Shown here one piece after another: positions 30 through 63,642 of a stretch of DNA of 64,000 nucleotides. The notes under the pieces are model-generated. The model made no database searches, was not told where the DNA came from, and worked only from the letters and a program-made list of their open reading frames with translations. A program made the position numbers and the translations under genes. Each line of letters opens with the position of its first letter. Position 1 is the stretch's first letter. Source of the DNA: an uncultured Pseudomonadota bacterium (GTDB lineage Bacteria > Pseudomonadota > Alphaproteobacteria > Rs-D84); NCBI GenBank assembly GCA_902781465.1, contig CACZJK010000003.1, forward strand, positions 12,054 through 76,053, in the 5' to 3' direction.

Positions 30-3000
30 ATGTTAAAATTTTTTATTCGCAAGCCTGTCACAACAATAATGTTTGTTTTGTTCTTTGTGATATTAGGTTT
101 GGTTTCTTTTCCAAAAATGAATATCGAAAGAACGCCATCTGTTGACTTTCCGTATGTGACGGCTACATTTGTCTATCCTGGTGCAACACCAGAAGAACTG
201 GAAAGCCAGGTTATTAAAAAAGCAGAAAATGCGATGTCAGAAGTATCGGGTGTAAAAAAGATTACTTCCCAAATTTACGAAAATTCTGCGTATGTAATTT
301 CTGAATTTAATTTAGGTGTAAATGTTGATGACAAAGCAAACGAAGTAAAGGCAAAGATAGACGGACTTGCTAATGAATTTCCTGATGATTTGAAACAGCC
401 TGTTATTGCAAAATTAAATCCATTGCAAACCTCTGTTTTGGATATTGTTATTCGTGGTGGCAATCCACGTGATGTTGAAAAGTATGTGTCTGATACGCTT
501 TCTAACAAGATAACAGCGGTCAAGGGTGTTGCGTCTATAAATACTTTTGGGGGATTACAACGTGCGGTTCGTATCGCGATGGATCCTGATTTGATGGCTG
601 CGCGTGGCGTGACAGTAAATGATATTGTAAGTGCTATCGCGACACATAATTTAAATGTTCCTGGGGGAAAGATAGAAACATCAATCAATTCTGAAAATGT
701 GCGTTTTGTTGGTGAATTCCAAAGTGTGAAAGATATTTCAAATCTTGAAATTACAACAGTCGAAGGGGAAAATTTCAAATTATCAGATGTTGCATCTATT
801 ACGGATGCCGCACGTGATATAGAAAAAGGGGCGTTATATAATGGTGAAAATGTTGTGATTTTATCAGTTGTTAAATCTTCGGATGGTAATGCGATAAAAA
901 TATCAAATGCTTTGCACAAAAAATTGCCAGAATTTGAAGCGCAATTAAAAACACATTTTCCTGATGCTACTATGAAGGTTGTATCTGATTCTTCAATACA
1001 TGTGTCCCAAGATACAACAGATACAATAAATGGTATTATTTTAGGTGTTATATTCACGGTTATTGTTTTGTTAGCATTCACGCGTAATTGGCGTTCAACA
1101 GTTGTTGCGGGTGTTGTGATACCTGCGTCGTTGATTGCTGGTTTCTTCCTTATGGATGAATCTGGTTTTACAATAAATGCTATGACTTTGTTAGCCTATG
1201 CAACGGCGCTTGGAACATTGGTATCAAATGCGATTATTTTGATTGAGTCTGCTTTGTCAGAATTGCGAGCAGGAAAAACACCAGAGGTTGCAGCAGAAGA
1301 AGGAACACGCAAAGTTGCAGTGCCTGTATTGGCAGGTGTTGGAACTAATGTTGTTGTGTTTTTGCCTTTGGCATTTATGGGTGGTATTGTCGGTCAATTT
1401 ATGTTGCAGTTTGGTATGACAGTTGTGTATTTAACTTTGTTGTCTTTGTTGTTTTCTTTTACCTTAACGCCAATGATGATTGCAAAGTTATTAAGATTGC
1501 CGCGTAAAGTCCAAACCAAACGTGATGTAAAAGAACAACAACAACACAATAATGAATCACGTTTGCACAGTTGGTATCAATATCAGATACGTCATCCATT
1601 TGTTGTTATATTTGGTGCGTTTGCAGTATTAATAATGTCTGCACAATTGATGAAATTTGTTGGAAATGAATTTTCACCATCAACAGATGCTAATGAAATT
1701 ACAATTACTGCGCGTGCGCCAATGGGCAGTGTATATGCTAAATCAGAAAACATTGCACGCGAAATTGATAAACGTGTTAAAGAATTCAAAGAAGTAGAAT
1801 CAACCACAATTAAAATAGGGGATAAAGGTTTACAAAATATAAGTGTAAAGGTTGAATTGGTTGATATTGCAAAACGCGGTATCAGTGATAAAAAACTGGC
1901 GCAAAAAATGTTGCCTGTTTTATCTGATATTGTTGATGCAGAAATTCAAATACGTGCAGGTGAAAATATCAGTGGATCTGGTTTTAATTCGGATATGGTA
2001 TTAAATATTTATGGTGAAGATGATGCCAAAAGAAATACCTATGCACAACAAATACTTGAAATAGTAAATAATATTGATGCAGTGCAGAGTGCAGTTTTGG
2101 CACAACAAACGCCGAACAATGAAATTCGTTTTATTCCAGATATTGAAAAAATGAATTTCTGGGGTGTTAAAAATGCCCAGGCTGGTTCTACTTTACGTAC
2201 AGCATTGTTTGGAAACGACACTTATAAATACAAAGAAAAGGGTGATGAATATCCAATTATTTTGGAATTTGAAAAACAATTCAAAAAACAGTCTATGTTT
2301 GACAGTGTTTATATGAATTCACAAAAAGGTATGGTTGCGTTGTCTGAACTTGGGACAATAGAAAACGCCCCGGCAACTTCGAACATTTATCGTCTTGATA
2401 AAAATCGTGTGACAGAAATAGATATCAATATCGGTAAATCAACTGTCGGTCCTGTTCAGGCGCAAATACAAAAAGAATTGGATTCTATGAATTGGGAACC
2501 AGGTTACAAGGCCACTTTTGCCGGTATGTCTGAAATTCAAGAAGAATCAACATCTGAAATTGCCCAGGCGTTCTTGTTGGCAACAATATTGACATTTATG
2601 CTGTTGGCGGCAATTATGAATTCTTTCATACATCCGTTTACAATTGCAACGTCTATTATCACCAGTTTTGCAGGGGTATTCATTGCATTGTTCTTGTCCG
2701 GTGCTTCAATGAATGTTGGTGCGATGTTGGCGTTTATTATGTTGGTTGGTTTGGTGGTTAATAATAATATTTTGGTGTTGGAACCGACAGTTGTTCGTGT
2801 TCAAAACGGCGAAGATGCCCAAAAAGTATTGTGGGAAGAAATGATGGATAAAAAGCGTATGATTTGGATGACAACTATCGCGGTTGTTGCGGGTATGATT
2901 CCGCAATTGTGGTCGAACGATGGGTTAAAGGTTGCAATGGGTGCGGTTATGATTGGTGGTATGATGGCATCACTGGTTTGGACATTCAGTTTGACACCGT

Positions 3001-3053
3001 CTTTGTTCTTTGTTATGGAAAAATTGCGCAAAAGAATATACCATATTAAATAA
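30..3053 (+). CDS. RND-superfamily (AcrB/AcrD/AcrF-type) efflux transporter permease
   Basis: 1009-aa ORF. The track start at 24 is TTG; the ATG at 30 lies 6-7 nt after AGGAAG. Typical RND N-terminus FFIRKPVTTIMFVLFF, two large soluble loops alternating with TM bundles, ~1000 aa. No membrane-fusion or outer-membrane partner inside the window. Confidence 0.9.
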   Translation: MLKFFIRKPVTTIMFVLFFVILGLVSFPKMNIERTPSVDFPYVTATFVYPGATPEELESQVIKKAENAMSEVSGVKKITSQIYENSAYVISEFNLGVNVDDKANEVKAKIDGLANEFPDDLKQPVIAKLNPLQTSVLDIVIRGGNPRDVEKYVSDTLSNKITAVKGVASINTFGGLQRAVRIAMDPDLMAARGVTVNDIVSAIATHNLNVPGGKIETSINSENVRFVGEFQSVKDISNLEITTVEGENFKLSDVASITDAARDIEKGALYNGENVVILSVVKSSDGNAIKISNALHKKLPEFEAQLKTHFPDATMKVVSDSSIHVSQDTTDTINGIILGVIFTVIVLLAFTRNWRSTVVAGVVIPASLIAGFFLMDESGFTINAMTLLAYATALGTLVSNAIILIESALSELRAGKTPEVAAEEGTRKVAVPVLAGVGTNVVVFLPLAFMGGIVGQFMLQFGMTVVYLTLLSLLFSFTLTPMMIAKLLRLPRKVQTKRDVKEQQQHNNESRLHSWYQYQIRHPFVVIFGAFAVLIMSAQLMKFVGNEFSPSTDANEITITARAPMGSVYAKSENIAREIDKRVKEFKEVESTTIKIGDKGLQNISVKVELVDIAKRGISDKKLAQKMLPVLSDIVDAEIQIRAGENISGSGFNSDMVLNIYGEDDAKRNTYAQQILEIVNNIDAVQSAVLAQQTPNNEIRFIPDIEKMNFWGVKNAQAGSTLRTALFGNDTYKYKEKGDEYPIILEFEKQFKKQSMFDSVYMNSQKGMVALSELGTIENAPATSNIYRLDKNRVTEIDINIGKSTVGPVQAQIQKELDSMNWEPGYKATFAGMSEIQEESTSEIAQAFLLATILTFMLLAAIMNSFIHPFTIATSIITSFAGVFIALFLSGASMNVGAMLAFIMLVGLVVNNNILVLEPTVVRVQNGEDAQKVLWEEMMDKKRMIWMTTIAVVAGMIPQLWSNDGLKVAMGAVMIGGMMASLVWTFSLTPSLFFVMEKLRKRIYHIK

Positions 3054-3056
3054 CAG

Positions 3057-3085
3057 TTGACAAAATTTATGTTTTGTATTATATT
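3057..3085 (+). promoter_or_regulatory. Sigma70-like promoter (TTGACA-N17-TATATT)
   Basis: TTGACA at 3057-3062, 17-nt spacer, TATATT at 3080-3085, in the 55-nt gap ahead of the 3109 ORF. Confidence 0.4.
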
Positions 3086-3108
3086 TATATGGTGATAAAA
3101 GGTGAAAT

Positions 3109-3765
3109 ATGAAAAGTGAAAAAATTATTTCTGGAATAAAGACTGCTGGCGTGGTTTTAACTGCTGCGCTTACCATGAATTCTTGTGGCCCTAGACAGTT
3201 GTCAGAAAAAGAACAACAAACTGTTCAACATAAAACAGACAGTGCGGTATATGTTCATCCTGAATATAGAATGGCCGTGGGATTGGTTGAATTGGGTGAA
3301 ACAAAAATCAAAAGTTTTCGTGATGCTAATAAAGCGTTGCTTAAAATGGGTGCAAAAGATTTTATTAGAACCGGTGTAAAAGATGCCAAAATGGCAAGAT
3401 TCATGTATCGTGCAATTGAAGATGAAAAATTTGTCTTTTCGTCAAATTCGGGAATTGATTCTGATGATGGGTTTGCAGAAAATGTTGATATAAATACTTT
3501 AAGCATGATGCAGCGTATACGTCGTGAACAAAGATGGTATAACGATTTGTTGTTATATTTATCTGATAAGTATACAGAACAACAATTGTTGAAAAGTAAT
3601 TTTTTCAAAGTTATTAATAATAAAGACTTGAAAAAATCTTTCGAATATAATACACAACAGATAGAGTATTTACAATCGTGTATGGAATTCCCTTTGCAGC
3701 GCGAAAAAATAATTCGTGACGAACTGTGGAACAAATACGCATCAGAAGCAGTAAAACAAAGATAA
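3109..3765 (+). CDS. Hypothetical secreted protein, probable lipoprotein
   Basis: 218 aa. N-terminal hydrophobic stretch GVVLTAALTMNSC with the Cys in a lipobox-like context; purine-rich RBS upstream. No family recognised. Confidence 0.6.
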   Translation: MKSEKIISGIKTAGVVLTAALTMNSCGPRQLSEKEQQTVQHKTDSAVYVHPEYRMAVGLVELGETKIKSFRDANKALLKMGAKDFIRTGVKDAKMARFMYRAIEDEKFVFSSNSGIDSDDGFAENVDINTLSMMQRIRREQRWYNDLLLYLSDKYTEQQLLKSNFFKVINNKDLKKSFEYNTQQIEYLQSCMEFPLQREKIIRDELWNKYASEAVKQR

Positions 3766-3771
3766 AAGAAA

Positions 3772-4368
3772 ATGTTAAAAAAAGTAAATGTTGTAGTATT
3801 TGATTTTGATGGAACATTATCTGCAAGCGATTCAAATTACGAATTTTTTAAGTATTGTTTTAAACACTCAATTCGTCCGTGGTTGTTTTTGCCATGTGTA
3901 ATTGCAGGTTTGGTTGGTTCACGTTTGAATTATCGTGGGTTATGGTGGCGTGAACATATTCGTAATTTTATCACACCAAAAATGGTAAAGGATTTTTCTG
4001 CTGACGTAATAAAATTACATAAACAAAATCGTTTTGGTTGGGCGAAAGAAGTTGTCGCCAAAGAACGTTCCAAAGGTAATAAAGTTGTTTTGATTTCTGC
4101 TTCGCCAGATTATTTGGTGCCACATTTGGTAAGTGATATGAAATTTGATGCTGTTTTTTGTTCGCAAATGGATAAAGAAAAACCTTATAAATACAAATTT
4201 CTTTGCTGGAATAAAAACAAGGTGATTGCGTTGGATAAATGGGCGCTTGAAAATAAATATATCCCAAATGTTGTTCGCGCTTATTCAGACAGTATGTCAG
4301 ATATGCCTATAATGGAAATTGCAAAAGAACAAGTTTGGATAAATCCAAAAACAGGTTTAAGAAAATAA
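3772..4368 (+). CDS. HAD-superfamily hydrolase (HAD-IB-like phosphatase)
   Basis: 198 aa. Motif I DFDGTL near the N-terminus, ISASP (motif II-like), SDSMSDMP (motif IV-like). Starts 6 nt after the preceding stop. Confidence 0.75.
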   Translation: MLKKVNVVVFDFDGTLSASDSNYEFFKYCFKHSIRPWLFLPCVIAGLVGSRLNYRGLWWREHIRNFITPKMVKDFSADVIKLHKQNRFGWAKEVVAKERSKGNKVVLISASPDYLVPHLVSDMKFDAVFCSQMDKEKPYKYKFLCWNKNKVIALDKWALENKYIPNVVRAYSDSMSDMPIMEIAKEQVWINPKTGLRK

Positions 4369-4399
4369 TAAAAACCACCGCCAATTGGCTATATTTTTT

Positions 4400-4428
4400 T
4401 TGCATATATACCCAAAATATGATATGAT
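4400..4428 (+). promoter_or_regulatory. Sigma70-like promoter (TTGCAT-N17-TATGAT) giving a near-leaderless mRNA
   Basis: TTGCAT at 4400-4405, 17-nt spacer, TATGAT at 4423-4428. The ATG at 4440 is only 11 nt past the -10 and has no Shine-Dalgarno. Confidence 0.4.
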
Positions 4429-4439
4429 GCACAGTAAGA

Positions 4440-5387
4440 ATGAAAGGAATCTTTGTTTTTTCGTTGGTGTTTTTTGTAGCTTCAAATGCCTGTTGCGCAG
4501 AAGCTCTGGATTTGAACACCGCATTACAAAATACTTACCGTGTATGTGCAGATATTGATGACAATCTTCATGAATTAAAGGTTTTGGCTGGGGTAAACAC
4601 TGCTGTTACTGCGGTTGGAACTGGATTGGGGGTTGGTGCAACGGCGACAGGGTTTGTAAAACAAAAGACCGATAAAGAAATTGAAGAATTGGAAAGACTT
4701 TTGAAAGAAATGGAAGAACTTTCCAATCAATATACAGGCACAGAACCAGATGCCAATCAACGAAGTGCTTTTCTGACAGAATTTAATAATACCTATAATA
4801 CAGCGGTTAAAGATAAATCGACCGCACAACAAAAGATTGACGATCTAACCAAGAAATCCAAGAATCTGGGGAATTGGCGAACTGGATTATTGGCTGGGAA
4901 TACTGTGACCAATGTTGCGGGTGCGGTAATTGCAAGCAAGACAATAAATAAAGATGATATTCAGGGGCAAATTGATGCGTGTATATCCGCAACAAAAGAT
5001 TTAAATAATGCAATATTGGCTGCGAAATTATCAGGTGAAGATATCAGTGAAGCACAAAATATATATAAAGCCTGTCGTGAATATGAATATGTTGATATAA
5101 GCCCAATCAACAAACGTGGAACGGGTGCAATGGTTGCATCATCGGTTGGGGCGGTTGTTGGTGGTGTCGGGACAATAACCAGTGGTGTTGCAAACAGTGA
5201 TAAGATTAGAAACGACAACAGTGATAGTGGTAAAAAGAAAGAAAAAGATTTAAATACTGCATCTAATGTATTATCAATTGGTGCAACAGCAGCATCTGCA
5301 ACGGCAACAGTATTTAACGCAACCCAAATCGCAGCAATAAAGAAAGTTGCCAAGGTATCAGAATCATGCACGGGGGTATTGAAATGA
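4440..5387 (+). CDS. Secreted Gly/Ala-rich protein of unknown function
   Basis: 315 aa. Signal peptide MKGIFVFSLVFFVASNACCAEA. Four Gly/Ala/Thr-rich hydrophobic stretches (e.g. NTAVTAVGTGLGVGATATG, GAMVASSVGAVVGGVGTITSG) separated by charged coiled-coil-like segments. The stop overlaps the next start (ATGA). Confidence 0.7.
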   Translation: MKGIFVFSLVFFVASNACCAEALDLNTALQNTYRVCADIDDNLHELKVLAGVNTAVTAVGTGLGVGATATGFVKQKTDKEIEELERLLKEMEELSNQYTGTEPDANQRSAFLTEFNNTYNTAVKDKSTAQQKIDDLTKKSKNLGNWRTGLLAGNTVTNVAGAVIASKTINKDDIQGQIDACISATKDLNNAILAAKLSGEDISEAQNIYKACREYEYVDISPINKRGTGAMVASSVGAVVGGVGTITSGVANSDKIRNDNSDSGKKKEKDLNTASNVLSIGATAASATATVFNATQIAAIKKVAKVSESCTGVLK

Positions 5388-8158
5388 TAAAGAAAATACT
5401 CTGTGCATTTTTAATGATAATGGTTTCAGGGATTGCAAATGCAAATATCCATATTGACGGCAAAACCGTCCGTAAAATAGTATTGGAACACATAGATAGT
5501 GAACATCAAGTTCCCGCATTACAAGAATACAATGTTCAGTTAAAAGCAACTGGTAATTTTACAATGTCAGCAGCTGGATTATACAAAGTATGCACAGCAG
5601 CAGGATGGGATATTGCAACACCAGACGGTAAAACAAAATGTGATAATTTTGTAAAAGCACTGGTTGCGGAATCAGACTATAAATATTATGAAATCTGTGG
5701 AAAGGACAAAGGCAAATCTGGTGGTACAGAATATTGTGTTGATAATGTGTTTTATTCATTAATTGGCGGTATCCAGGTCACAATGTTACAGGCAGACGGT
5801 TTATGTAAAGAATATGCACGTGTAAAATATAATGACGATATAGAATGTTCAACAAATACCCGCAAAGGCACGATAAATCCATTGAATGACTATGTAAAAT
5901 GCACATCTAAATTAAAACCAATATATTACGAATTCAAATTTGATGATGTGGTTGAAAGTTCGGATAAAACTGTATTAAAAGGTGTGTTAAAAGGTGTTGG
6001 TAAATTATACAATGTTGATATATCTGACCCTGGATGCACTGTGGAAAGAATGATAAATAATACGGCATGTTCAATTGGATATAAAACAACGGATACAAAT
6101 ATATGCAATCAAATCAATAATTCACTTAAAACATTTGGATATACATCAAAGGTTGAAAATGTATCACGTGCAGGCTTAAATTCTGAAAAGTTATGTGGTG
6201 TGCATAATATAATAATGACCAGTTCAAATCTTAAAACCGCATATGGAATACCAAATGATGTTTTCTATGACGGAATAATCCAAATGCAAGGTTCCAAAGA
6301 CATAAAAGAAGGTATAAAACAATATGTCACAGAAAAGATTAAACCAGAAGCATTAACCAGTTTTGAATGTATTTCTAATACTATCAAAATGCCATCAATC
6401 AAGGGCAAGAAAGATAATGATGATGTTTTGACGTGTTATGTAAATGGCAATCAAATAGACTTTGTCTTTGATGATTTAAGCGAAGCCAGCAAATTAAGAC
6501 AACAAGGTGCAAAAGAAGCGTTTCAATGCACATATAATGGTGGATTAATGACAGGCAAAAGATGTTTAAATGTTGGCGAAGAAGCCTGTAAGAAAATTGC
6601 CCAATCAACATTTTTGGTTCAGGAATGTCCAGATTGCAGTAAATTGTATTGGGATGGCAATATGTGTACATTACCTGGTGCGGCTGTATCAAATGCATTG
6701 GACAAAGGATTAAATATAGCACTGATTGTTGGTGGTGCGGCATTAAATATATTTGTTGCGATTGGCACAGGAGGAACAAGTACGGCAGTTGGCGGTGGAT
6801 TATTGTTTGTTGAAACGGTCGGTTCTGCAATTGAATTAGGCACAGAAATAAAAATGGATTTGGCAGCCGATAAATTCTTTGTTGAATCAAGCAAATGCCA
6901 CGATAAAACCTGTGCAAATGATTTAATAAAGAAACATTTACAAAGATTATCTAATTTTTATACCAGATTGACATATGCAGAAGAAAAAGCCGTAGATCAT
7001 GAAATGGCAAGATTGTTTAAATTAATCCCAGCGGAAGAATTATTTACAGTTGAAGCATTGGTAAAAGTTGACCAAGAAAATGGTGGTAAAAAACTTGCTT
7101 CTGTAAAAGACAATCAAAAAGGATTCTTTGATTCAAAATCATGGGAATCAGAGCAAATATGGCAAGCTGTTGGAATAACAATGCAAATGGCAAGTTTGTT
7201 CTATCAAATTGGTTCTTGGGCATTTGGTAAATCAGGTAAGACAGCAAAAGCCATGACAGAAGTTGCAGATGTATTGGATGATAAAGCAGATGATGGATTG
7301 AAACAACTTAGAGAAAAAGGATTGAATGTAGAACTTGATGACAAAGGAAGAATCGTATTTAAAGATCAATTAAATCACGATATTATGAGTAGTTTTTCTG
7401 ATATATCAGACGAAGCAGGAAGAATGAGAATTCAAGCAATGAAAGAAAAATACGGTATCAAATTTCATGACGGTGGGACATCTTTGTATATACCGGATGG
7501 TATTGGTGATATTATGAGAAAGGAATTAGGTGATTCTAATGTAGAAAAAGAGTTTTATGAGGAAGTAAGGAACTTTATATATGAATATCATGGTTTGTTA
7601 GGTGATCCTGTAGATATCGGTGATTTCAGAAGAGTAGAAGAATTAACGCCTAGCACCCCTCTTTCTACTGAAAAAACTGCGGCTTTACGGGAAAAATTTG
7701 GGTTAGCTCCTAAAACAACAAATGCAACTAGTTCTGTTGACGATGCTATTACATCTGGAAGCAACTCTGCTACACAAAGACACTCTGGTTTTAATATGGG
7801 AGATAACACACATACAACTACAACAAAATCAGAACCACAAACTAGTTTTCGTGATAAAATAAAAGCTCTTAACGAAAAATATGCAGGTCAAACACCGGAT
7901 CAAAGTGCTATACCTGTATCTTCAACACCTACACAAAAACGTTCTTGGGCAGAAATTCAGGCTGCGGCGGAAGATGCAGGAAGAGCAAGAATAGAAAAAT
8001 TCAAAGAAAAGTATAATTTATCTATGGAAAACAGACGTAAATATACTAAAGAACAATGGGAACAGATATTAGACCAAGAACTTGGTTATTCCGACATAGA
8101 AGATGTATTCAGAAAAGATTTTAGAAATGGGATGAGTAATTTCTATTGGAATCAATAA
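5384..8158 (+). CDS. Large secreted/membrane protein with a Cys-rich N-terminal region, Gly-rich hydrophobic core and duplicated C-terminal module
   Basis: The track ORF is 5366..8158. The ATG at 5384 gives signal peptide MIKKILCAFLMIMVSGIANA and overlaps the upstream stop (ATGA). About 20 Cys in the first ~440 aa. Hydrophobic segment LNIALIVGGAALNIFVAIGTGGTSTAVGGGLLF. The C-terminal repeat is listed separately. Confidence 0.75.
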   Translation: MIKKILCAFLMIMVSGIANANIHIDGKTVRKIVLEHIDSEHQVPALQEYNVQLKATGNFTMSAAGLYKVCTAAGWDIATPDGKTKCDNFVKALVAESDYKYYEICGKDKGKSGGTEYCVDNVFYSLIGGIQVTMLQADGLCKEYARVKYNDDIECSTNTRKGTINPLNDYVKCTSKLKPIYYEFKFDDVVESSDKTVLKGVLKGVGKLYNVDISDPGCTVERMINNTACSIGYKTTDTNICNQINNSLKTFGYTSKVENVSRAGLNSEKLCGVHNIIMTSSNLKTAYGIPNDVFYDGIIQMQGSKDIKEGIKQYVTEKIKPEALTSFECISNTIKMPSIKGKKDNDDVLTCYVNGNQIDFVFDDLSEASKLRQQGAKEAFQCTYNGGLMTGKRCLNVGEEACKKIAQSTFLVQECPDCSKLYWDGNMCTLPGAAVSNALDKGLNIALIVGGAALNIFVAIGTGGTSTAVGGGLLFVETVGSAIELGTEIKMDLAADKFFVESSKCHDKTCANDLIKKHLQRLSNFYTRLTYAEEKAVDHEMARLFKLIPAEELFTVEALVKVDQENGGKKLASVKDNQKGFFDSKSWESEQIWQAVGITMQMASLFYQIGSWAFGKSGKTAKAMTEVADVLDDKADDGLKQLREKGLNVELDDKGRIVFKDQLNHDIMSSFSDISDEAGRMRIQAMKEKYGIKFHDGGTSLYIPDGIGDIMRKELGDSNVEKEFYEEVRNFIYEYHGLLGDPVDIGDFRRVEELTPSTPLSTEKTAALREKFGLAPKTTNATSSVDDAITSGSNSATQRHSGFNMGDNTHTTTTKSEPQTSFRDKIKALNEKYAGQTPDQSAIPVSSTPTQKRSWAEIQAAAEDAGRARIEKFKEKYNLSMENRRKYTKEQWEQILDQELGYSDIEDVFRKDFRNGMSNFYWNQ
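7421..8150 (+). repeat. Internal protein-level duplication in the 930-aa ORF
   Basis: RMRIQAMKEKYGIKFHDG...MRKELGDSNVEKEFYEEVRNFIYEY (nt ~7421-7590) versus RARIEKFKEKYNLSMEN...LDQELGYSDIEDVFRKDFRNGMSNFY (nt ~7981-8150). Confidence 0.55.
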
Positions 8159-29711: not shown

Positions 29712-30482
29712 TTACCGATTTGTTTCCATACTGTCATCAAAGACAGAATAAGTATTATTTTCAAAACTTACTTTTAATTTTCTTTCGGTTGAAATATTCA
29801 TTGGTATATCGGCCAGGGTCATATTCGCAGAATAAATATTTCCATTTACATTTATATATAAACGATGCTCGCTTGGGTGCGCTGGCGTTTGATGTAAATA
29901 GATTATTTCGTTGCCAATATGTAAAATGCGACCACATTGTGTGGCGGTCCACATACCGGCCGGCGCGAAAGGATGTTCAACCGGGCAGGGTGTTATACCC
30001 TGAGTAGTTGTTTCGTTAAAAGTATAAGTTCCACCCGAACAATAATTATCGCTTTGGCATTTTGTACAATTATCAACACCGGCCGGTAAATAATACCCCG
30101 GGGTACAGGTATGAACATTTGGGGTGAATACAGGGCTTATATTTGCGGTATTATTTAATGATTTTGTAAAATCTGTTCTGCACCCATTTTTTATATCCGA
30201 GGTGATAAAAGTTTTGAATTTAGCGCCCTGGGTATCAGTTTCGTTAAAAGTAAAATTGCCACCATTACAATCATAATATTCAGGACATATAACACAACCA
30301 TCATTATTTGCCGGAACATAATAACCGGAATTACATTGATATTGGTTTGGTGTAAATGTAGCCGATAAATAAGTGTCATTATTTAAACCAGACGAACAAC
30401 CGTTTGGAACGTTGGATATAATCAAATCATCCGCAAATGCAGATATTGGTAATATTAAAAAGATAAATAATAAGTTTTTCAT
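29712..30482 (-). other. B1 module: potentially independently translated Cys-rich secreted protein (256 aa)
   Basis: Internal ATG at 30482 gives MKNLLFIFLILPISAFADD (signal peptide). Followed by two ~70-aa Cys-rich repeats and a C-terminal domain. Confidence 0.5.
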
Positions 30483-31397
30483 TTGTGTCTTTTTTTGATT
30501 CTCCCCTTGGGGGGAGAGGGCCCGCAGGGCGAGGGAGGTTAAGATTCCAGATAACTTATTATCAGTGAACCCTCCCCCCGGCTGCGCCGCACCCCCTCCA
30601 AAGGGGGATTCTGTTAATACTGGGCCCGCTATAAATTGTCCTGTGCCTTGGTTGTAATAAAATTTCCCTTCTACTTTGTCAAACATACATGGGACACCAT
30701 CTTCATCAAGAACAGGAATAAAATCACGAACAAGAACGTCGTTTTCCCATATTTTTGCATAAAATATTTTTGCTGTTGAAATTTCACTCGGGCTATCTCC
30801 CCCACTATATTTATGGCCTGCAAACAAATATAATGAATGCGTTCGTTCAAATACACCAGACTGTGTATAGGTGTTTATTTGGTTTAATGTTTCGTTATTT
30901 TGAATTATTTGTGCAGATGTTGACATAACTTGTATTGAAGCGGTAATAACATCAGAATTCCTGCATTCCGCATTTGTAATATGATAACTGTTAAAATAGT
31001 ATATACATTTGTTATTTTGTACAACTAAAGGTGCGAAATAACTATATTGTACATTTGATGCTCTTGTTGAAGTTAGACCAGCAAAATCCATCGTACCAGA
31101 AGACAACGATTGTACTCTTATTTTAAATTTTGTTCCTATTTTTGGAATATATTCTGTATCAATATATTGTGTTCCTGTGCTTTCAAGATATTCAATCGGT
31201 GTATAGTTTACTATTTCCCACCCAGTAAATGTATATCCATATTTTGTTGGTGGGGTGGTGGGTATATTTAAATCACTATCAACAGTGCAGGTTGAATTTT
31301 GATATGTTGAACCATCTTCATTTAACCAATGCAGGTTTATAGTATCGGCGTATGCCCCAAAACACAATATTGATAATAATACTAAAAACTTTTTCAT
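29712..31397 (-). CDS. Read-through ORF fusing a List-Bact-repeat-like secreted protein (A1) to a Cys-rich repeat protein (B1)
   Basis: Track ORF 29712..31409. The ATG at 31397 gives signal peptide MKKFLVLLSILCFGAYA. The N-terminal half is paralogous to 62920..63642 and the C-terminal half to 63639..>64000. The halves are joined by a 45-codon GC-rich linker with no stop codon, and B1's own ATG and signal peptide are retained internally at 30482. Confidence 0.7.
   Translation of the reverse strand: MKKFLVLLSILCFGAYADTINLHWLNEDGSTYQNSTCTVDSDLNIPTTPPTKYGYTFTGWEIVNYTPIEYLESTGTQYIDTEYIPKIGTKFKIRVQSLSSGTMDFAGLTSTRASNVQYSYFAPLVVQNNKCIYYFNSYHITNAECRNSDVITASIQVMSTSAQIIQNNETLNQINTYTQSGVFERTHSLYLFAGHKYSGGDSPSEISTAKIFYAKIWENDVLVRDFIPVLDEDGVPCMFDKVEGKFYYNQGTGQFIAGPVLTESPFGGGAAQPGGGFTDNKLSGILTSLALRALSPQGENQKKTQMKNLLFIFLILPISAFADDLIISNVPNGCSSGLNNDTYLSATFTPNQYQCNSGYYVPANNDGCVICPEYYDCNGGNFTFNETDTQGAKFKTFITSDIKNGCRTDFTKSLNNTANISPVFTPNVHTCTPGYYLPAGVDNCTKCQSDNYCSGGTYTFNETTTQGITPCPVEHPFAPAGMWTATQCGRILHIGNEIIYLHQTPAHPSEHRLYINVNGNIYSANMTLADIPMNISTERKLKVSFENNTYSVFDDSMETNR
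29982..30404 (-). repeat. Tandem ~70-aa Cys-rich repeats in B1
   Basis: NGC..LNN...TFTPNQYQCNSGYYVPANNDGCVICPEYYDCNGGNFTFNETDTQG versus NGC..LNN...VFTPNVHTCTPGYYLPAGVDNCTKCQSDNYCSGGTYTFNETTTQG. The same unit occurs in B2. Confidence 0.8.
30495..30612. repeat. GC-rich imperfect palindromic (MITE/REP/RPE-like) element
   Basis: Left arm ctccccttggggggagagggcccgcagggcgagggaggttaag. AT-rich centre attccagataacttattatca. The right arm gtgaaccctccccccggctgcgccgcaccccctccaaaggggga is roughly the reverse complement of the left. GATTCT is directly repeated at both ends (30497, 30606). GC content contrasts sharply with the flanks. Confidence 0.65.
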
Positions 31398-31665
31398 CCT
31401 TTCCCCCATTGTTTGGTGTCGCCTTGTAGGGGTTTTTGTTTGATTGTCTTTTTATTCCCATGGCAATAAACAAAAACCGCGCTTATGATAAAGGCGGTTG
31501 GAGGTCAAAGACTATTTATTAGCAGAAAATAGCGTGCTTATTCTGCCCAAATGAAACAGATGGACATTATTCGCAACCCTCCAACCCAAATATTGGAGGA
31601 ATTTTACGTCCCCGCGGACGCTGCTAATATACGAGGTCTTTGCTCCCCAACACATATTCTGTGTC
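31398..31665 (-). promoter_or_regulatory. Long structured 5' leader (candidate attenuator/riboswitch), copy 1
   Basis: Hairpin cgtccgcggggacg (31607-31620). Segment 1 cctccaa (31593-31599). Segment 2 ggttggagg (31578-31586). Segment 3 cctccaacc (31496-31504), overlapping the terminator arm. Blocks shared with 62715-62919. Confidence 0.5.
31467..31499 (-). terminator. Leader terminator hairpin plus T-run (copy 1)
   Basis: Minus-strand sense: AACCGC-ctttatcataagc-GCGGTT followed by TTTGTTT. Lies ~70 nt upstream of the A1 start. Confidence 0.45.
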
Positions 31666-62714: not shown

Positions 62715-62919
62715 TGAATCATAAAAACAATGGTTCTGGGCTTAGAAATCCCATACAAAACCGTCTGCGCAGACGTTAAATGCTCCAACCCTCCATGGTT
62801 GGATGGTGGTGAATATATTGAATAATCCACGCAATTCGTTTTGTATTGTTTCTAACATCCAACCGCCTGTTTCTATGATTTGGCGGTATTTTTGTTGCCA
62901 AAAAAGGAAGGGAAACAAC
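62715..62919 (+). promoter_or_regulatory. Long structured 5' leader (candidate attenuator/riboswitch), copy 2
   Basis: Hairpin cgtctgcgcagacg (62762-62775). Segment 1 tccaacc (62784-62790). Segment 2 ggttggatg (62797-62805). Segment 3 catccaacc (62856-62864), overlapping the terminator arm. Confidence 0.5.
62862..62896 (+). terminator. Leader terminator hairpin plus T-run (copy 2)
   Basis: ACCGCC (62862-62867) pairs with GGCGGT (62882-62887), followed by ATTTTTGTT. Lies 24 nt upstream of the A2 ATG. Confidence 0.45.
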
Positions 62920-63642
62920 ATGAAACGAATAATATTGATATTGGTTGCGTTTACAACAATAAATGCACATTCACAAACAGAAACATTAAATTGGTATATT
63001 GACGGACAAACCTATGCAACAACAACCTGTGAAAGCGGTGGCGATGTCCTTTTGCCAACCAGCCCAACCAAACGCGGTTATACATTTATGGGGTGGAGTC
63101 TTTACACTCCGATAGAGTATTTGGAGAGTACCGGGACACAGTGGATTGATACGGGATATATTCCAAATTTAAATACAAAAATAAAATTATCCGTAGTTTC
63201 CAATAATATATCAAGCAATGCAATTTCCGGAGAAGCTTGGAATTATAGAACAACTTTATTAATGTTTGAAAATGCCACTGTTAAATGGCATTTATGTAGC
63301 AACGGCTCAGTAACAAGTTCACTTATAAGTTCAAATACTGTTTGTAATATAGAAGCGGAAAATGGGGTACTGATATTAAATAACCAGATATATTCTTGTT
63401 ATAAATTAACATCCTTTTCTGCTTATACAAATATGCGCATATTTTTTAACGGAAATAGCTCTAGTAAAATCAAATTATATTATTTTAAAATCTACGATAA
63501 CAACACTCTCGTTCGTGATTTTATTCCTGTTCTTGACAAAGATGGTGCCCCATGTATGTATGACAAAGTGGAAAATAAATTTTATTACAACGCCGGCACC
63601 GGTCAATTTATCGCCGGGCCAATCATAGGGGCAGAACAATGA
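62920..63642 (+). CDS. Secreted protein A2: List-Bact-repeat-like N-domain plus variable-core domain
   Basis: The ATG at 62920 (RBS AAGGAAGGG) gives signal peptide MKRIILILVAFTTINAHS. GYTFMGW motif, YTPIEYLESTGTQWIDTGYIP, and C-terminal LVRDFIPVLDKDGAPCMYDKVENKFYYNAGTGQFIAGP shared with A1. The track ORF 62803 extends into the leader. Confidence 0.75.
   Translation: MKRIILILVAFTTINAHSQTETLNWYIDGQTYATTTCESGGDVLLPTSPTKRGYTFMGWSLYTPIEYLESTGTQWIDTGYIPNLNTKIKLSVVSNNISSNAISGEAWNYRTTLLMFENATVKWHLCSNGSVTSSLISSNTVCNIEAENGVLILNNQIYSCYKLTSFSAYTNMRIFFNGNSSSKIKLYYFKIYDNNTLVRDFIPVLDKDGAPCMYDKVENKFYYNAGTGQFIAGPIIGAEQ

Follow-up and report, generated by a model that had tools for sequence, protein, structure and literature searches.

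The stretch of DNA analysed here (64,000 nt, hereafter the window; contig CACZJK010000003.1 of assembly GCA_902781465.1, from an uncultured alphaproteobacterium of the order Rs-D84) carries on its minus strand an open reading frame (ORF), 29712..31409, in which two genes for secreted proteins, A1 and B1, are joined in frame through an imperfect, GC-rich palindrome at 30495-30612. In this study, we found that the palindrome consists of two inverted copies of a short two-hairpin unit, that this unit belongs to a dispersed family of intergenic repeats, and that A1 is joined to B1 only through a 7-nt difference by which this sequence departs from other assemblies of its clone. The element and its family are real, whereas the in-frame fusion, the striking part of the locus, rests on seven bases. 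The features of the junction are collected in Table 1; loci outside the window and protein records are cited by our own L and P numbers.

Table 1. Features of the A1-B1 junction, in window coordinates (L170 and L171 are contigs of other public assemblies)
Feature	Position	Strand	Remarks
A1	30615..31409	-	signal peptide, Listeria-Bacteroides repeat, ~195-aa module with hypervariable centre
B1	29712..30482	-	own ATG and signal peptide, Cys-rich repeat protein; separate 256-aa gene in other assemblies
Extra DNA relative to empty orthologous A-B junctions	30483..30614	-	132 nt; 2 or 5 nt in relatives
Unit 1, beside A1	30566..30612	-	G-rich strand is the gene strand; nhmmer 30569-30608, E 6e-7; inverted repeat I12
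AT-rich spacer between the inverted units	30549..30565	.	17 nt; TGA and TAA in the two closed frames
Unit 2, beside B1	30497..30548	+	inverted relative to unit 1; nhmmer 30499-30541, E 7e-5; inverted repeat I7
Site of the 7-nt difference	30608..30609	-	L170 and L171 read ACAGAA-TAATAAT-TCCCCC on the gene strand

The secreted proteins A and B are a conserved pair. The ~195-aa module of A is also found repeated within proteins of ~1000 aa, and B1, whose N-terminus reads MKNLLFIFLILPISAFADD..., starts with MKNLLFIF. The closest A homologue, P0052, is encoded on L001, where GC islands occur upstream of A, at the A-B junction, and after B. Searches of solved structures with A1 and B1 gave nothing useful. 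The window contains a second, paralogous pair, in which A2 (62803-63642) ends ...FIAGPIIGAEQ-stop and B2 starts at 63639 through an ATGA overlap, as the initial annotation of this DNA had described.

An inverted doublet at the A1-B1 junction

Measured in 100-nt windows, the GC content across the palindrome is 0.64-0.70, compared with an overall value of 0.365 for the window. An inverted-repeat search recovered the hairpins TCTCCCC/GGGGAGA (30500-06/30511-17) and CCCCCT/AGGGGG (30592-97/30602-07), as well as an 8-nt complement between the two arms; the picture of a GC-rich palindromic insert with a small hairpin of its own in each arm, given in the initial annotation, is thus borne out in full. 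The predicted fold of the element strand is more stable than those of its shuffles both as RNA (-57.2 kcal/mol, z -2.5) and as DNA (-28.7 kcal/mol, z -3.2). An RNA structure may modulate the expression of A and B, as the initial annotation suggested.

Comparison with the copies on L001 revealed that the two arms of the palindrome are self-contained units, the element as a whole being an inverted doublet of a ~45-nt two-hairpin unit. In unit 1, of which 37 nt are identical to L001 6119-6155, hairpin 1 is CCCCC-TTTGGA-GGGGG (plus-strand 30592-30607) and hairpin 2 is CGGC-GCA-GCCG (plus-strand 30579-30589), with the tail GGGGGGAGGGTT. In unit 2, the corresponding hairpins are TCTCCCC-TTGG-GGGGAGA (30500-30517) and GCCC-GCA-GGGC (30520-30530), and the tail is GAGGGAGGTTAAGATTCC. 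On the G-rich strand of unit 1 (30566-30612), two G-runs, the adjacent one and the distal one in the tail, are alternative partners for the C-run of hairpin 1. RNAfold favours the distal pairing (-24.6 kcal/mol, 94% of the ensemble), and the unit may toggle between the two folds.

The extra DNA was delimited by alignment with the A-B junctions of L163, L168, L166, L169, and the A2-B2 pair of the window, and is flanked by CCAGTATTA and ATGAAAAAC. The extent of ~115 bp first assigned to the element therefore describes the palindrome, but not the whole of the extra DNA. Among these relatives, the loci L163/L164/L165 (B 82% identical) and L168 (71%) are syntenic with the window (rpoB ... NusG-SecE-tRNA-A-B-VirB8-VirB9-VirB10), and their junctions are empty, with the stop codon of A overlapping the start codon of B (TAATG). 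The junctions of L166, L169, and A2-B2 are likewise empty, with an ATGA overlap. The initial annotation had recognized the insert as extra DNA by comparison with the paralogous pair, and the syntenic orthologues now say the same. All B homologues at 70-82% identity are separate proteins of ~256 aa, and their junctions are either empty or contain a stop codon. As the syntenic orthologues and four other A-B pairs have empty, overlapping junctions, the element is, on the loci compared, an acquisition in this lineage.

Elements or half-elements also fill the A-B junctions of L042, L001, L028, and L040, always 3' of the stop codon of A. The junction of L042 contains an almost identical doublet in the same orientation as that of the window; nevertheless, inheritance of the doublet at an orthologous site shared with L042 was dropped as an explanation, because the syntenic orthologues are empty and B is mosaic. 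The two GATTCT hexamers (30497-30502 and 30607-30612), previously described as a direct repeat bounding the insert, are indeed present, but they are not a target-site duplication: GATTCT is the quasi-palindromic GAWTC end of the unit, which copies elsewhere also conserve and the empty sites lack. No flanking repeat was found around the doublets in L042, L001, and L028. The trinucleotide 'ACA' was considered as an alternative target duplication, which a single event cannot establish.

A dispersed family of two-hairpin units

The layout of the unit is TTCTCCCCC-loop-GGGGGAG, a T(G/A)C linker, a stem of 4-5 bp with a GNA triloop, and then GGAGGGGG. In terms of its parts, it has an outer end (A/G)(A/T)TTC, a first hairpin CTCCCCC-loop-GGGGGAG, a second hairpin such as CGGC-GCA-GCCG, CCGTC-GAA-GACGG, or GCCC-GCA-GGGC, and a tail GGAGGGGG(TTA). 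The GT(A/G)C linker between the two hairpins is the sole conserved motif outside the stems. On high-GC contigs the unit is very uniform and reads TTTCTCCCCCC-GNA-GGGGGGAGTAC-CCGGC-GAA-GCCGG-GGAGGGGGG.

The hairpins covary within the family. In hairpin 2, a mean of 2.76 of the 4 arm positions pair, compared with 1.09 +/- 0.15 in shuffles, and this pairing is achieved by many different stems; the test is unbiased, as the pattern of the second scan described below, that of the metagenomes, ended at the loop and did not include the 3' arm. A count giving 100% pairing was obtained from units pre-selected for perfect stems, and as it is not independent, no weight was given to it. A compensatory change from C-G to T-A distinguishes hairpin 1 of unit 2 between the copies of the window and L042. 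The GNA triloop is present in hairpin 2 of 19 of the 37 units that match neither scan pattern, and a C-GNA-G loop occurs in hairpin 1, where the loop was unconstrained, in 29 of 70 high-GC units. GCGAAGC and GCGCAGC are classical, very stable DNA mini-hairpins, the stability of which needs a C:G closing pair (PMC13037366, PMC3201870). The GNA triloops closed by C:G in the unit, as in these mini-hairpins, point to a possible role of the units as single-stranded DNA. More generally, the hairpins probably act as structures of single-stranded DNA or RNA.

A scan of 185,579 species-representative genomes, made with a pattern for one sub-type of the unit, returned 38 stretches. When these were checked with a profile derived from the first copies, only the low-GC matches proved to contain units, and the confirmed carriers are metagenome-assembled genomes (MAGs) of Candidatus Enterousia and of unnamed gut or rumen Alphaproteobacteria or 'proteobacterium' (RGIG, RUG, and SRR873606/9 bins). 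High-GC matches of the Streptomyces type are due to chance, and the profile did not confirm units in them. Candidatus Enterousia belongs to the order Rs-D84, a group of gut Alphaproteobacteria with genomes below 1 Mb (PMC12306168). A scan of the JGI metagenomes with a more general pattern returned at least 120 stretches; among the matches listed, units were confirmed by the profile in 111 of 120 loci, on contigs of 32-71% GC. In the window and the low-GC loci, the profile found 39 units. Because the alanine racemase encoded beside one high-GC unit clusters at 90% identity or more with proteins of Acidimicrobiia MAGs, the family crosses phyla. Membership of the element in a multi-copy palindromic family resembling REP elements (repetitive extragenic palindromes) or MITEs (miniature inverted-repeat transposable elements), as proposed in the initial annotation, is thus supported by profile matches across about 130 loci. 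The copies lie in other genomes and metagenomes; in the window itself, neither blastn-short nor the nhmmer profile of the family detected a second copy of the element.

The units occur as singles, as direct tandems (three copies in L030 and L063, four in L118 and L040), as inverted doublets (the window, L042, L001, L028, and L004), and in mixed mosaic arrays, and the inverted doublets are no more common than the other arrangements. The mosaic array of L039 comprises 11 units in 7.4 kb together with other small hairpins. In this locus (1100-7200, Alphaproteobacteria MAG RGIG4808), the 11 units have the same orientation and are interleaved with GC hairpins such as ATGCCCGTGACGGGTATGAAA; the local GC content is 54%, and long spurious ORFs run through the array.

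The family is undescribed; no Rfam model covers it, and it did not turn up in the literature searched. The Rfam searches covered the window, L001, L004, and 22 other loci, and nothing except tRNAs reached the gathering threshold. A match of unit 2 (30497-30536) to RF01762, whalefall-1, scored 26.9 bits (E 3e-4), below the gathering score of 37; it was rejected, as it was not reproduced on strong members of the family, with 16.1 bits on L001 and no match at E <= 0.01 on 15 unit-rich loci. A string search of the literature with six 19-21-mers of the unit gave no match. The unit is also absent from the phage collection (IMG/VR scan, 0 matches), and neither the element nor the high-GC consensus matched a plasmid by BLAST, a result to which the low-complexity filter may contribute.

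Two features of the sites occupied by the units are worth recording. Many units lie directly against the T-run of an intrinsic terminator, their GGGGGTTA(AAAA) end being turned towards it (L009 811-920, L025 478-600, L026 2244-2340 and 3462-3550, L030 1469-1520, L055 314-400), and this adjacency hints at a preferred site of insertion or retention. On high-GC contigs of the Acidimicrobiia type, the C-rich strand of the unit ends GGGGAGAAA(C) and is followed directly by the ATG of trpD or alr (L070 ~5411-5470, L153 ~1100-1160, L052, L100). As the end of the unit directly precedes the ATG, its last hairpin contains the Shine-Dalgarno sequence of these genes.

The reading frame across the junction

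The minus-strand ORF encodes 565 aa and is the sole one across the junction. It runs from the end of A1 (...FIAGPVLTE) through SPFGGGAAQPGGGFTDNKLSGILTSLALRALSPQGENQKKTQ to the start of B1 (MKNLLFIF...), and 44 of its residues are contributed by the element. The initial annotation had noted that the element contains no stop codon in this frame, and that B1 keeps its own ATG and signal peptide internally; both statements agree with the sequence. It should be added that, of the three frames, two are closed by a TGA and a TAA in the AT-rich centre of the element, which leaves a single one open across it.

A search with A1 alone identified P0271, a protein of 267 aa that is 100% identical to A1 and ends ...GPVLTE-stop. 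It is encoded on ENA ERZ28613905 scaffold_21 (278,731 nt, L170) and on ERZ1029112 k87_17158972 (L171). In L170, A occupies 3001-3804 and is separated by a 130-nt gap from a separately called B (3935-4705). Both contigs contain TAATAAT at the A1-side edge of the element, with which A1 reads ...V L T E TAA TAA and B1 is a separate gene. Apart from this single 7-nt gap, the window has no mismatches to L170 over 6,804 nt or to L171 over 2,141 nt, and three further stretches of the L170 scaffold show no differences; together they cover window positions 3680-64000 (60.3 kb). The 565-aa product is represented by a single record, P0392 (NCBI and ENA), on one contig of 263,866 nt that is presumably the window's own, whereas the protein collection has A1 alone on three contigs and B1 alone on two. 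The proposed read-through of A1 into B1 therefore holds for the frame of this one sequence, but not for otherwise identical assemblies. A check of the junction had been suggested in the initial annotation, and at the level of assemblies it disclosed a stop codon at the A1 edge in two other public data sets.

Judged from these alignments, the fusion is a 7-nt deletion private to one deposited assembly, while other assemblies of the same clone record two stops. An error of assembly or sequencing appears considerably more likely than a real allele, which would have to be a very recent deletion, because there are no single-nucleotide polymorphisms (SNPs) over 60 kb, the length lost is not a multiple of the AAT repeat, the microhomology amounts to 1 nt, and the site adjoins a very stable hairpin.

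The behaviour of the family is in line with this picture. Among 58 distinct clusters of units in low-GC loci, 57 are intergenic; the one exception, that of the window, lies in an ORF that has a real gene at each end. Two candidates for further in-frame copies (L110 5708-5749, L139 4268-4309) were rejected, as they lie in spurious ORFs made of repeats alone. The differences between the elements of the window and L042 preserve base pairing and not codons. A conserved coding linker was likewise rejected, since the orthologues have no such peptide and the constraint is structural rather than coding.

One further observation concerns the end of the element near B1. At 30489-30495 (minus strand), a run of seven A's 5' of the B1 ATG reads C-AA AAA AAG in the fused frame. 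The heptamer A_AAA_AAG is of the type used for -1 frameshifting in dnaX, with GGGGAG located 4 nt before it; after a -1 shift, the protein would stop ~22 codons further on. This may be a coincidence in an A-rich spacer.

A-B diversification, alternative explanations, and known elements

The genes on either side of the element are themselves variable. In comparisons of A1 (30615-31397) with the A genes of L163, L166, L168, L169, and L042, the 5' ends (~260 nt) and 3' ends (~100 nt) are near-identical and the centre is unalignable. The B genes are mosaic, and their best match changes from one relative to another at intervals of 60-200 nt. Over its first 60 nt, B1 shares 90% identity with B of L042, as against 75% with the syntenic L163, and its 3' end is closest to L163 and L168. 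A and B thus look like a recombining, diversifying family of secreted proteins, here directly upstream of virB8/9/10. As B is mosaic and A has conserved ends with an unalignable centre, recombination with an already filled cassette would be as plausible a route for the arrival of the element as transposition.

The regions upstream of the A genes are of two unrelated classes. A conserved structured leader, class I, precedes A1 (31470-31665, minus strand) and A2 (62728-62897, plus strand), and is also found at L001 5733-5912, L033 1508-1690, and L013 4277-4460. Its structure comprises internal hairpins and a long-range helix that includes several compensatory pairs (alignment columns 32-38 with 165-171). 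Next comes an intrinsic terminator CCTCCAACCGCC...GGCGGTTTTT, the 5' side of which can pair with an upstream GGTTGGAGG. This leader is riboswitch- or attenuator-like and has no Rfam match. A class II leader, likewise with compensatory pairs and with a GAATCCAATGGGAATTGGGTTCGGG...CCCCGACCGCC terminator, lies ahead of further A genes, among them the syntenic orthologues of A1 (L004 5094-5312, L163 5030-5212, L166 5050-5262, L168 4078-4266, L169 4264-4482, and L040 1790-1975 on the minus strand). A match of the class II leader of L166 (5155-5241) to sRNA-Xcc1 was set aside as sub-threshold (43.8 against a threshold of 53). Since A1 has a class I leader and its syntenic orthologues have class II leaders, the leader has been swapped between lineages.

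Taken together, we consider it likely that the element is an intergenic repeat resembling REP elements and bacterial interspersed mosaic elements (BIMEs), and that the fusion is a by-product of the 7-nt difference rather than a coding linker. The course of events may have been as follows. In the ancestor, A and B would have overlapped by their stop and start codons, with B translated through termination-reinitiation coupling to A. The element would then have entered the A1-B1 junction, whether it transposed there or came with an already filled A-B cassette through recombination. In the strain as recorded by the other assemblies, it sits in a 130-nt spacer past the TAA TAA stop, and this structured spacer probably lowered the translation of B1 or uncoupled it from that of A1, as the sole Shine-Dalgarno-like sequence, GGGGAG, lies 18 nt upstream of B1 and inside hairpin 1. 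In the version seen in the window, a 7-nt deletion at the A1-side end of the element removes both stops, and A1 thereby enters the one frame in which the element is open, by chance that of B1. From such a version, ribosomes would read on and give an A1-linker-B1 protein with an internal signal peptide.

Several observations weigh against this reading. One doublet in 74 kb of this genome may be a low copy number for a REP-like family. A tblastn search with IS608 TnpA and the Escherichia coli REP-associated tyrosine transposase (RAYT) found no match in 1.17 Mb of flanking DNA, a weak search given the approximate queries, and transposases are absent from the 25 most frequent Pfam families among 131 ORFs that neighbour units. 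In addition, the units are enriched around A-B operons, which could reflect a function in these operons instead of selfish spread. Finally, comparison of assemblies alone cannot separate an error from a real allele.

The last of these points leads to the explanation in which the fused allele is real, a natural 7-bp deletion having removed the tandem stops so that read-through restores coupling and yields a secreted A1-linker-B1 protein. The 565-aa product has been deposited from an independent record (the 263,866-nt contig in NCBI and ENA), the TAATG and ATGA overlaps at ancestral junctions imply that A and B are translationally coupled, the start of B1 has no well-spaced Shine-Dalgarno sequence, with GGGGAG 18 nt away and within hairpin 1, and seven nucleotides are the kind of length required to enter the sole open frame. 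However, at least three contigs of other assemblies of the same clone, without SNPs over 60 kb, have the stops; the length and the microhomology of the loss speak little for a natural deletion at the AAT repeat; a very stable GC hairpin beside the site is prone to errors in both sequencing and assembly; the constraint on the element is structural; and the signal peptide of B1 would become internal. We therefore regard a real allele as rather unlikely. Very unlikely, in our view, is a bolder combination, in which the ~45-nt unit (CTCCCCCC-GNA-GGGGGGAG, GTAC, CCGGC-GAA-GCCGG, GGAGGGGGG) would be a mobile functional module, read by some enzyme as mini-hairpins of single-stranded DNA and common to gut Alphaproteobacteria of reduced genome, Acidimicrobiia from soil, and one or more other lineages, with the fused allele as a real compensatory variant that restores coupled translation. 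The proposal of the initial annotation that the element resembles a Rickettsia palindromic element (RPE), habitually inserted in frame and kept as a peptide, fares worst. The ORF of the window is open through the element, and the host belongs to a reduced-genome lineage of Alphaproteobacteria (PMC12306168). Nonetheless, with one of 58 clusters in a real ORF, the two other 'embedded' cases made of spurious repeat ORFs, no peptide in the orthologues, and stop codons in the identical assemblies, we find such a habit extremely improbable.

Two further explanations concern the units and not the fusion. The units might be cis-acting RNA modules of the A-B operons, such as intercistronic or 3' stabilisers, processing sites, or hairpins that sequester Shine-Dalgarno sequences and set the A:B ratio, rather than selfish elements. 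They are indeed found in the interval from the leader terminator to A, at the A-B junction, and past B (L001, L013, L028, L033, L040, L042); nine low-GC metagenome loci among the matches listed have A or B homologues beside units, and Flg_new, to which the A-type proteins belong, is the sole enriched Pfam family among the 131 neighbouring ORFs. The C-rich strand ending GGGGAGAA(A) directly before the ATG of trpD and alr on high-GC contigs and the alternative fold of the G-rich strand would also suit an RNA module. On the other hand, the closest syntenic orthologues and four other A-B pairs do without units, the same type of junction holds units in either orientation, and units also lie after the terminators of unrelated genes and in Acidimicrobiia without A or B genes, while GNA triloops closed by C:G mark DNA mini-hairpins and are not typical RNA loops (PMC13037366, PMC3201870); on these grounds, a primary role as RNA modules is unlikely. 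Alternatively, the units may provide portable homology for the exchange of cassettes among variable A-B loci, in which case the doublet would have come by homologous recombination and not by transposition. The mosaic structure of B, with a start resembling that of L042, which has the same doublet upstream, and a 3' end nearest L163 and L168, is consistent with such exchange, as are the conserved ends of A around its unalignable centre and the different leader classes at syntenic loci. The A-side flank of the doublet, however, is of the L163 type and not of the L042 type, and units are also common away from A and B genes and in other phyla; we regard a role of the units as homology for cassette exchange as quite unlikely.

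With the element read as an intergenic repeat, the locus has some practical and biological consequences. It would be a mistake to treat the 565-aa 'fusion protein' deposited for this MAG as a natural protein of two domains, given that it hangs on 7 bases at which other assemblies of the clone disagree. In A+T-rich genomes, G+C-rich repeats are free of stop codons and therefore inflate gene calls: P0052 (L001 6001-6170) has a 56-aa N-terminal extension made of units, and the repeat arrays of L110 (5559-6029) and L139 (3835-4554) give rise to 'proteins' with the recurrent peptide PPWGSAAQPEGG. The locus also illustrates how an element may break a translationally coupled pair at its overlapping stop and start codons, in this case in a rapidly recombining family of secreted proteins beside a type IV secretion gene cluster.

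Among known systems, RPEs share with the present element a palindromic repeat in a reduced-genome alphaproteobacterium and, in this one version of the sequence, an in-frame peptide. RPEs are typically found in frame inside genes (PMC10969869; PMC1779305), whereas the present family, intergenic in 57 of 58 clusters and with a lone coding case that hangs on a 7-nt assembly difference, is set apart by its behaviour. MITEs such as Correia/NEMIS are similar in size (~115-130 bp), terminal inverted symmetry, lack of coding function, position near gene ends, and ability to alter expression (PMC10969869). Unlike MITEs, the doublet has no target-site duplication, and its arms are autonomous units that also occur alone or in direct tandems; no parent insertion sequence sharing its termini was seen in the unit-bearing loci (tblastn, Pfam of neighbours). 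At the level of the single hairpin, the unit resembles the d(GCGNAGC) mini-hairpins, since hairpin 2 typically contains GCGAAGC or GCGCAGC, with GNA on a C:G pair, and high-GC copies have the same loop type in hairpin 1. Those mini-hairpins are a physico-chemical motif, whereas the unit is a genetic element.

The closest parallel is with the REP/BIME elements of Enterobacteria and the REPIN-RAYT system of Pseudomonas (PMC3116915, PMC3337134). Like the present units, these are short, G+C-rich, imperfectly palindromic extragenic repeats that occur as singles, tandems, inverted doublets with a short spacer, and mosaic clusters, and that lie between operon genes or just past stop codons and terminators without target-site duplication (PMC3116915, PMC3337134). 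REPINs are inverted doublets that predominate as the replicating form, and the associated RAYT gene, for a Y1/HUH transposase, usually has REPs on its flanks. In contrast to REP and REPIN, the present unit comprises two hairpins and a G-run tail in ~45 nt, and begins (A/G)(A/T)TTCTCCCC with no GTAG-type 5' tetranucleotide; a RAYT gene was not found in the 1.17 Mb covered by the weak search, and the density is low. REP sequences are usually lineage-specific (PMC3116915, PMC3337134), whereas the present unit is near-identical in different phyla. The sharing of a near-identical unit by Rs-D84 Alphaproteobacteria with genomes below 1 Mb and high-GC Acidimicrobiia is unusual for a REP-like repeat, and raises the question of what moves or maintains it. 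In its organisation, the unit family is nearest to the REP/BIME elements and REPIN doublets, and it represents a new family.

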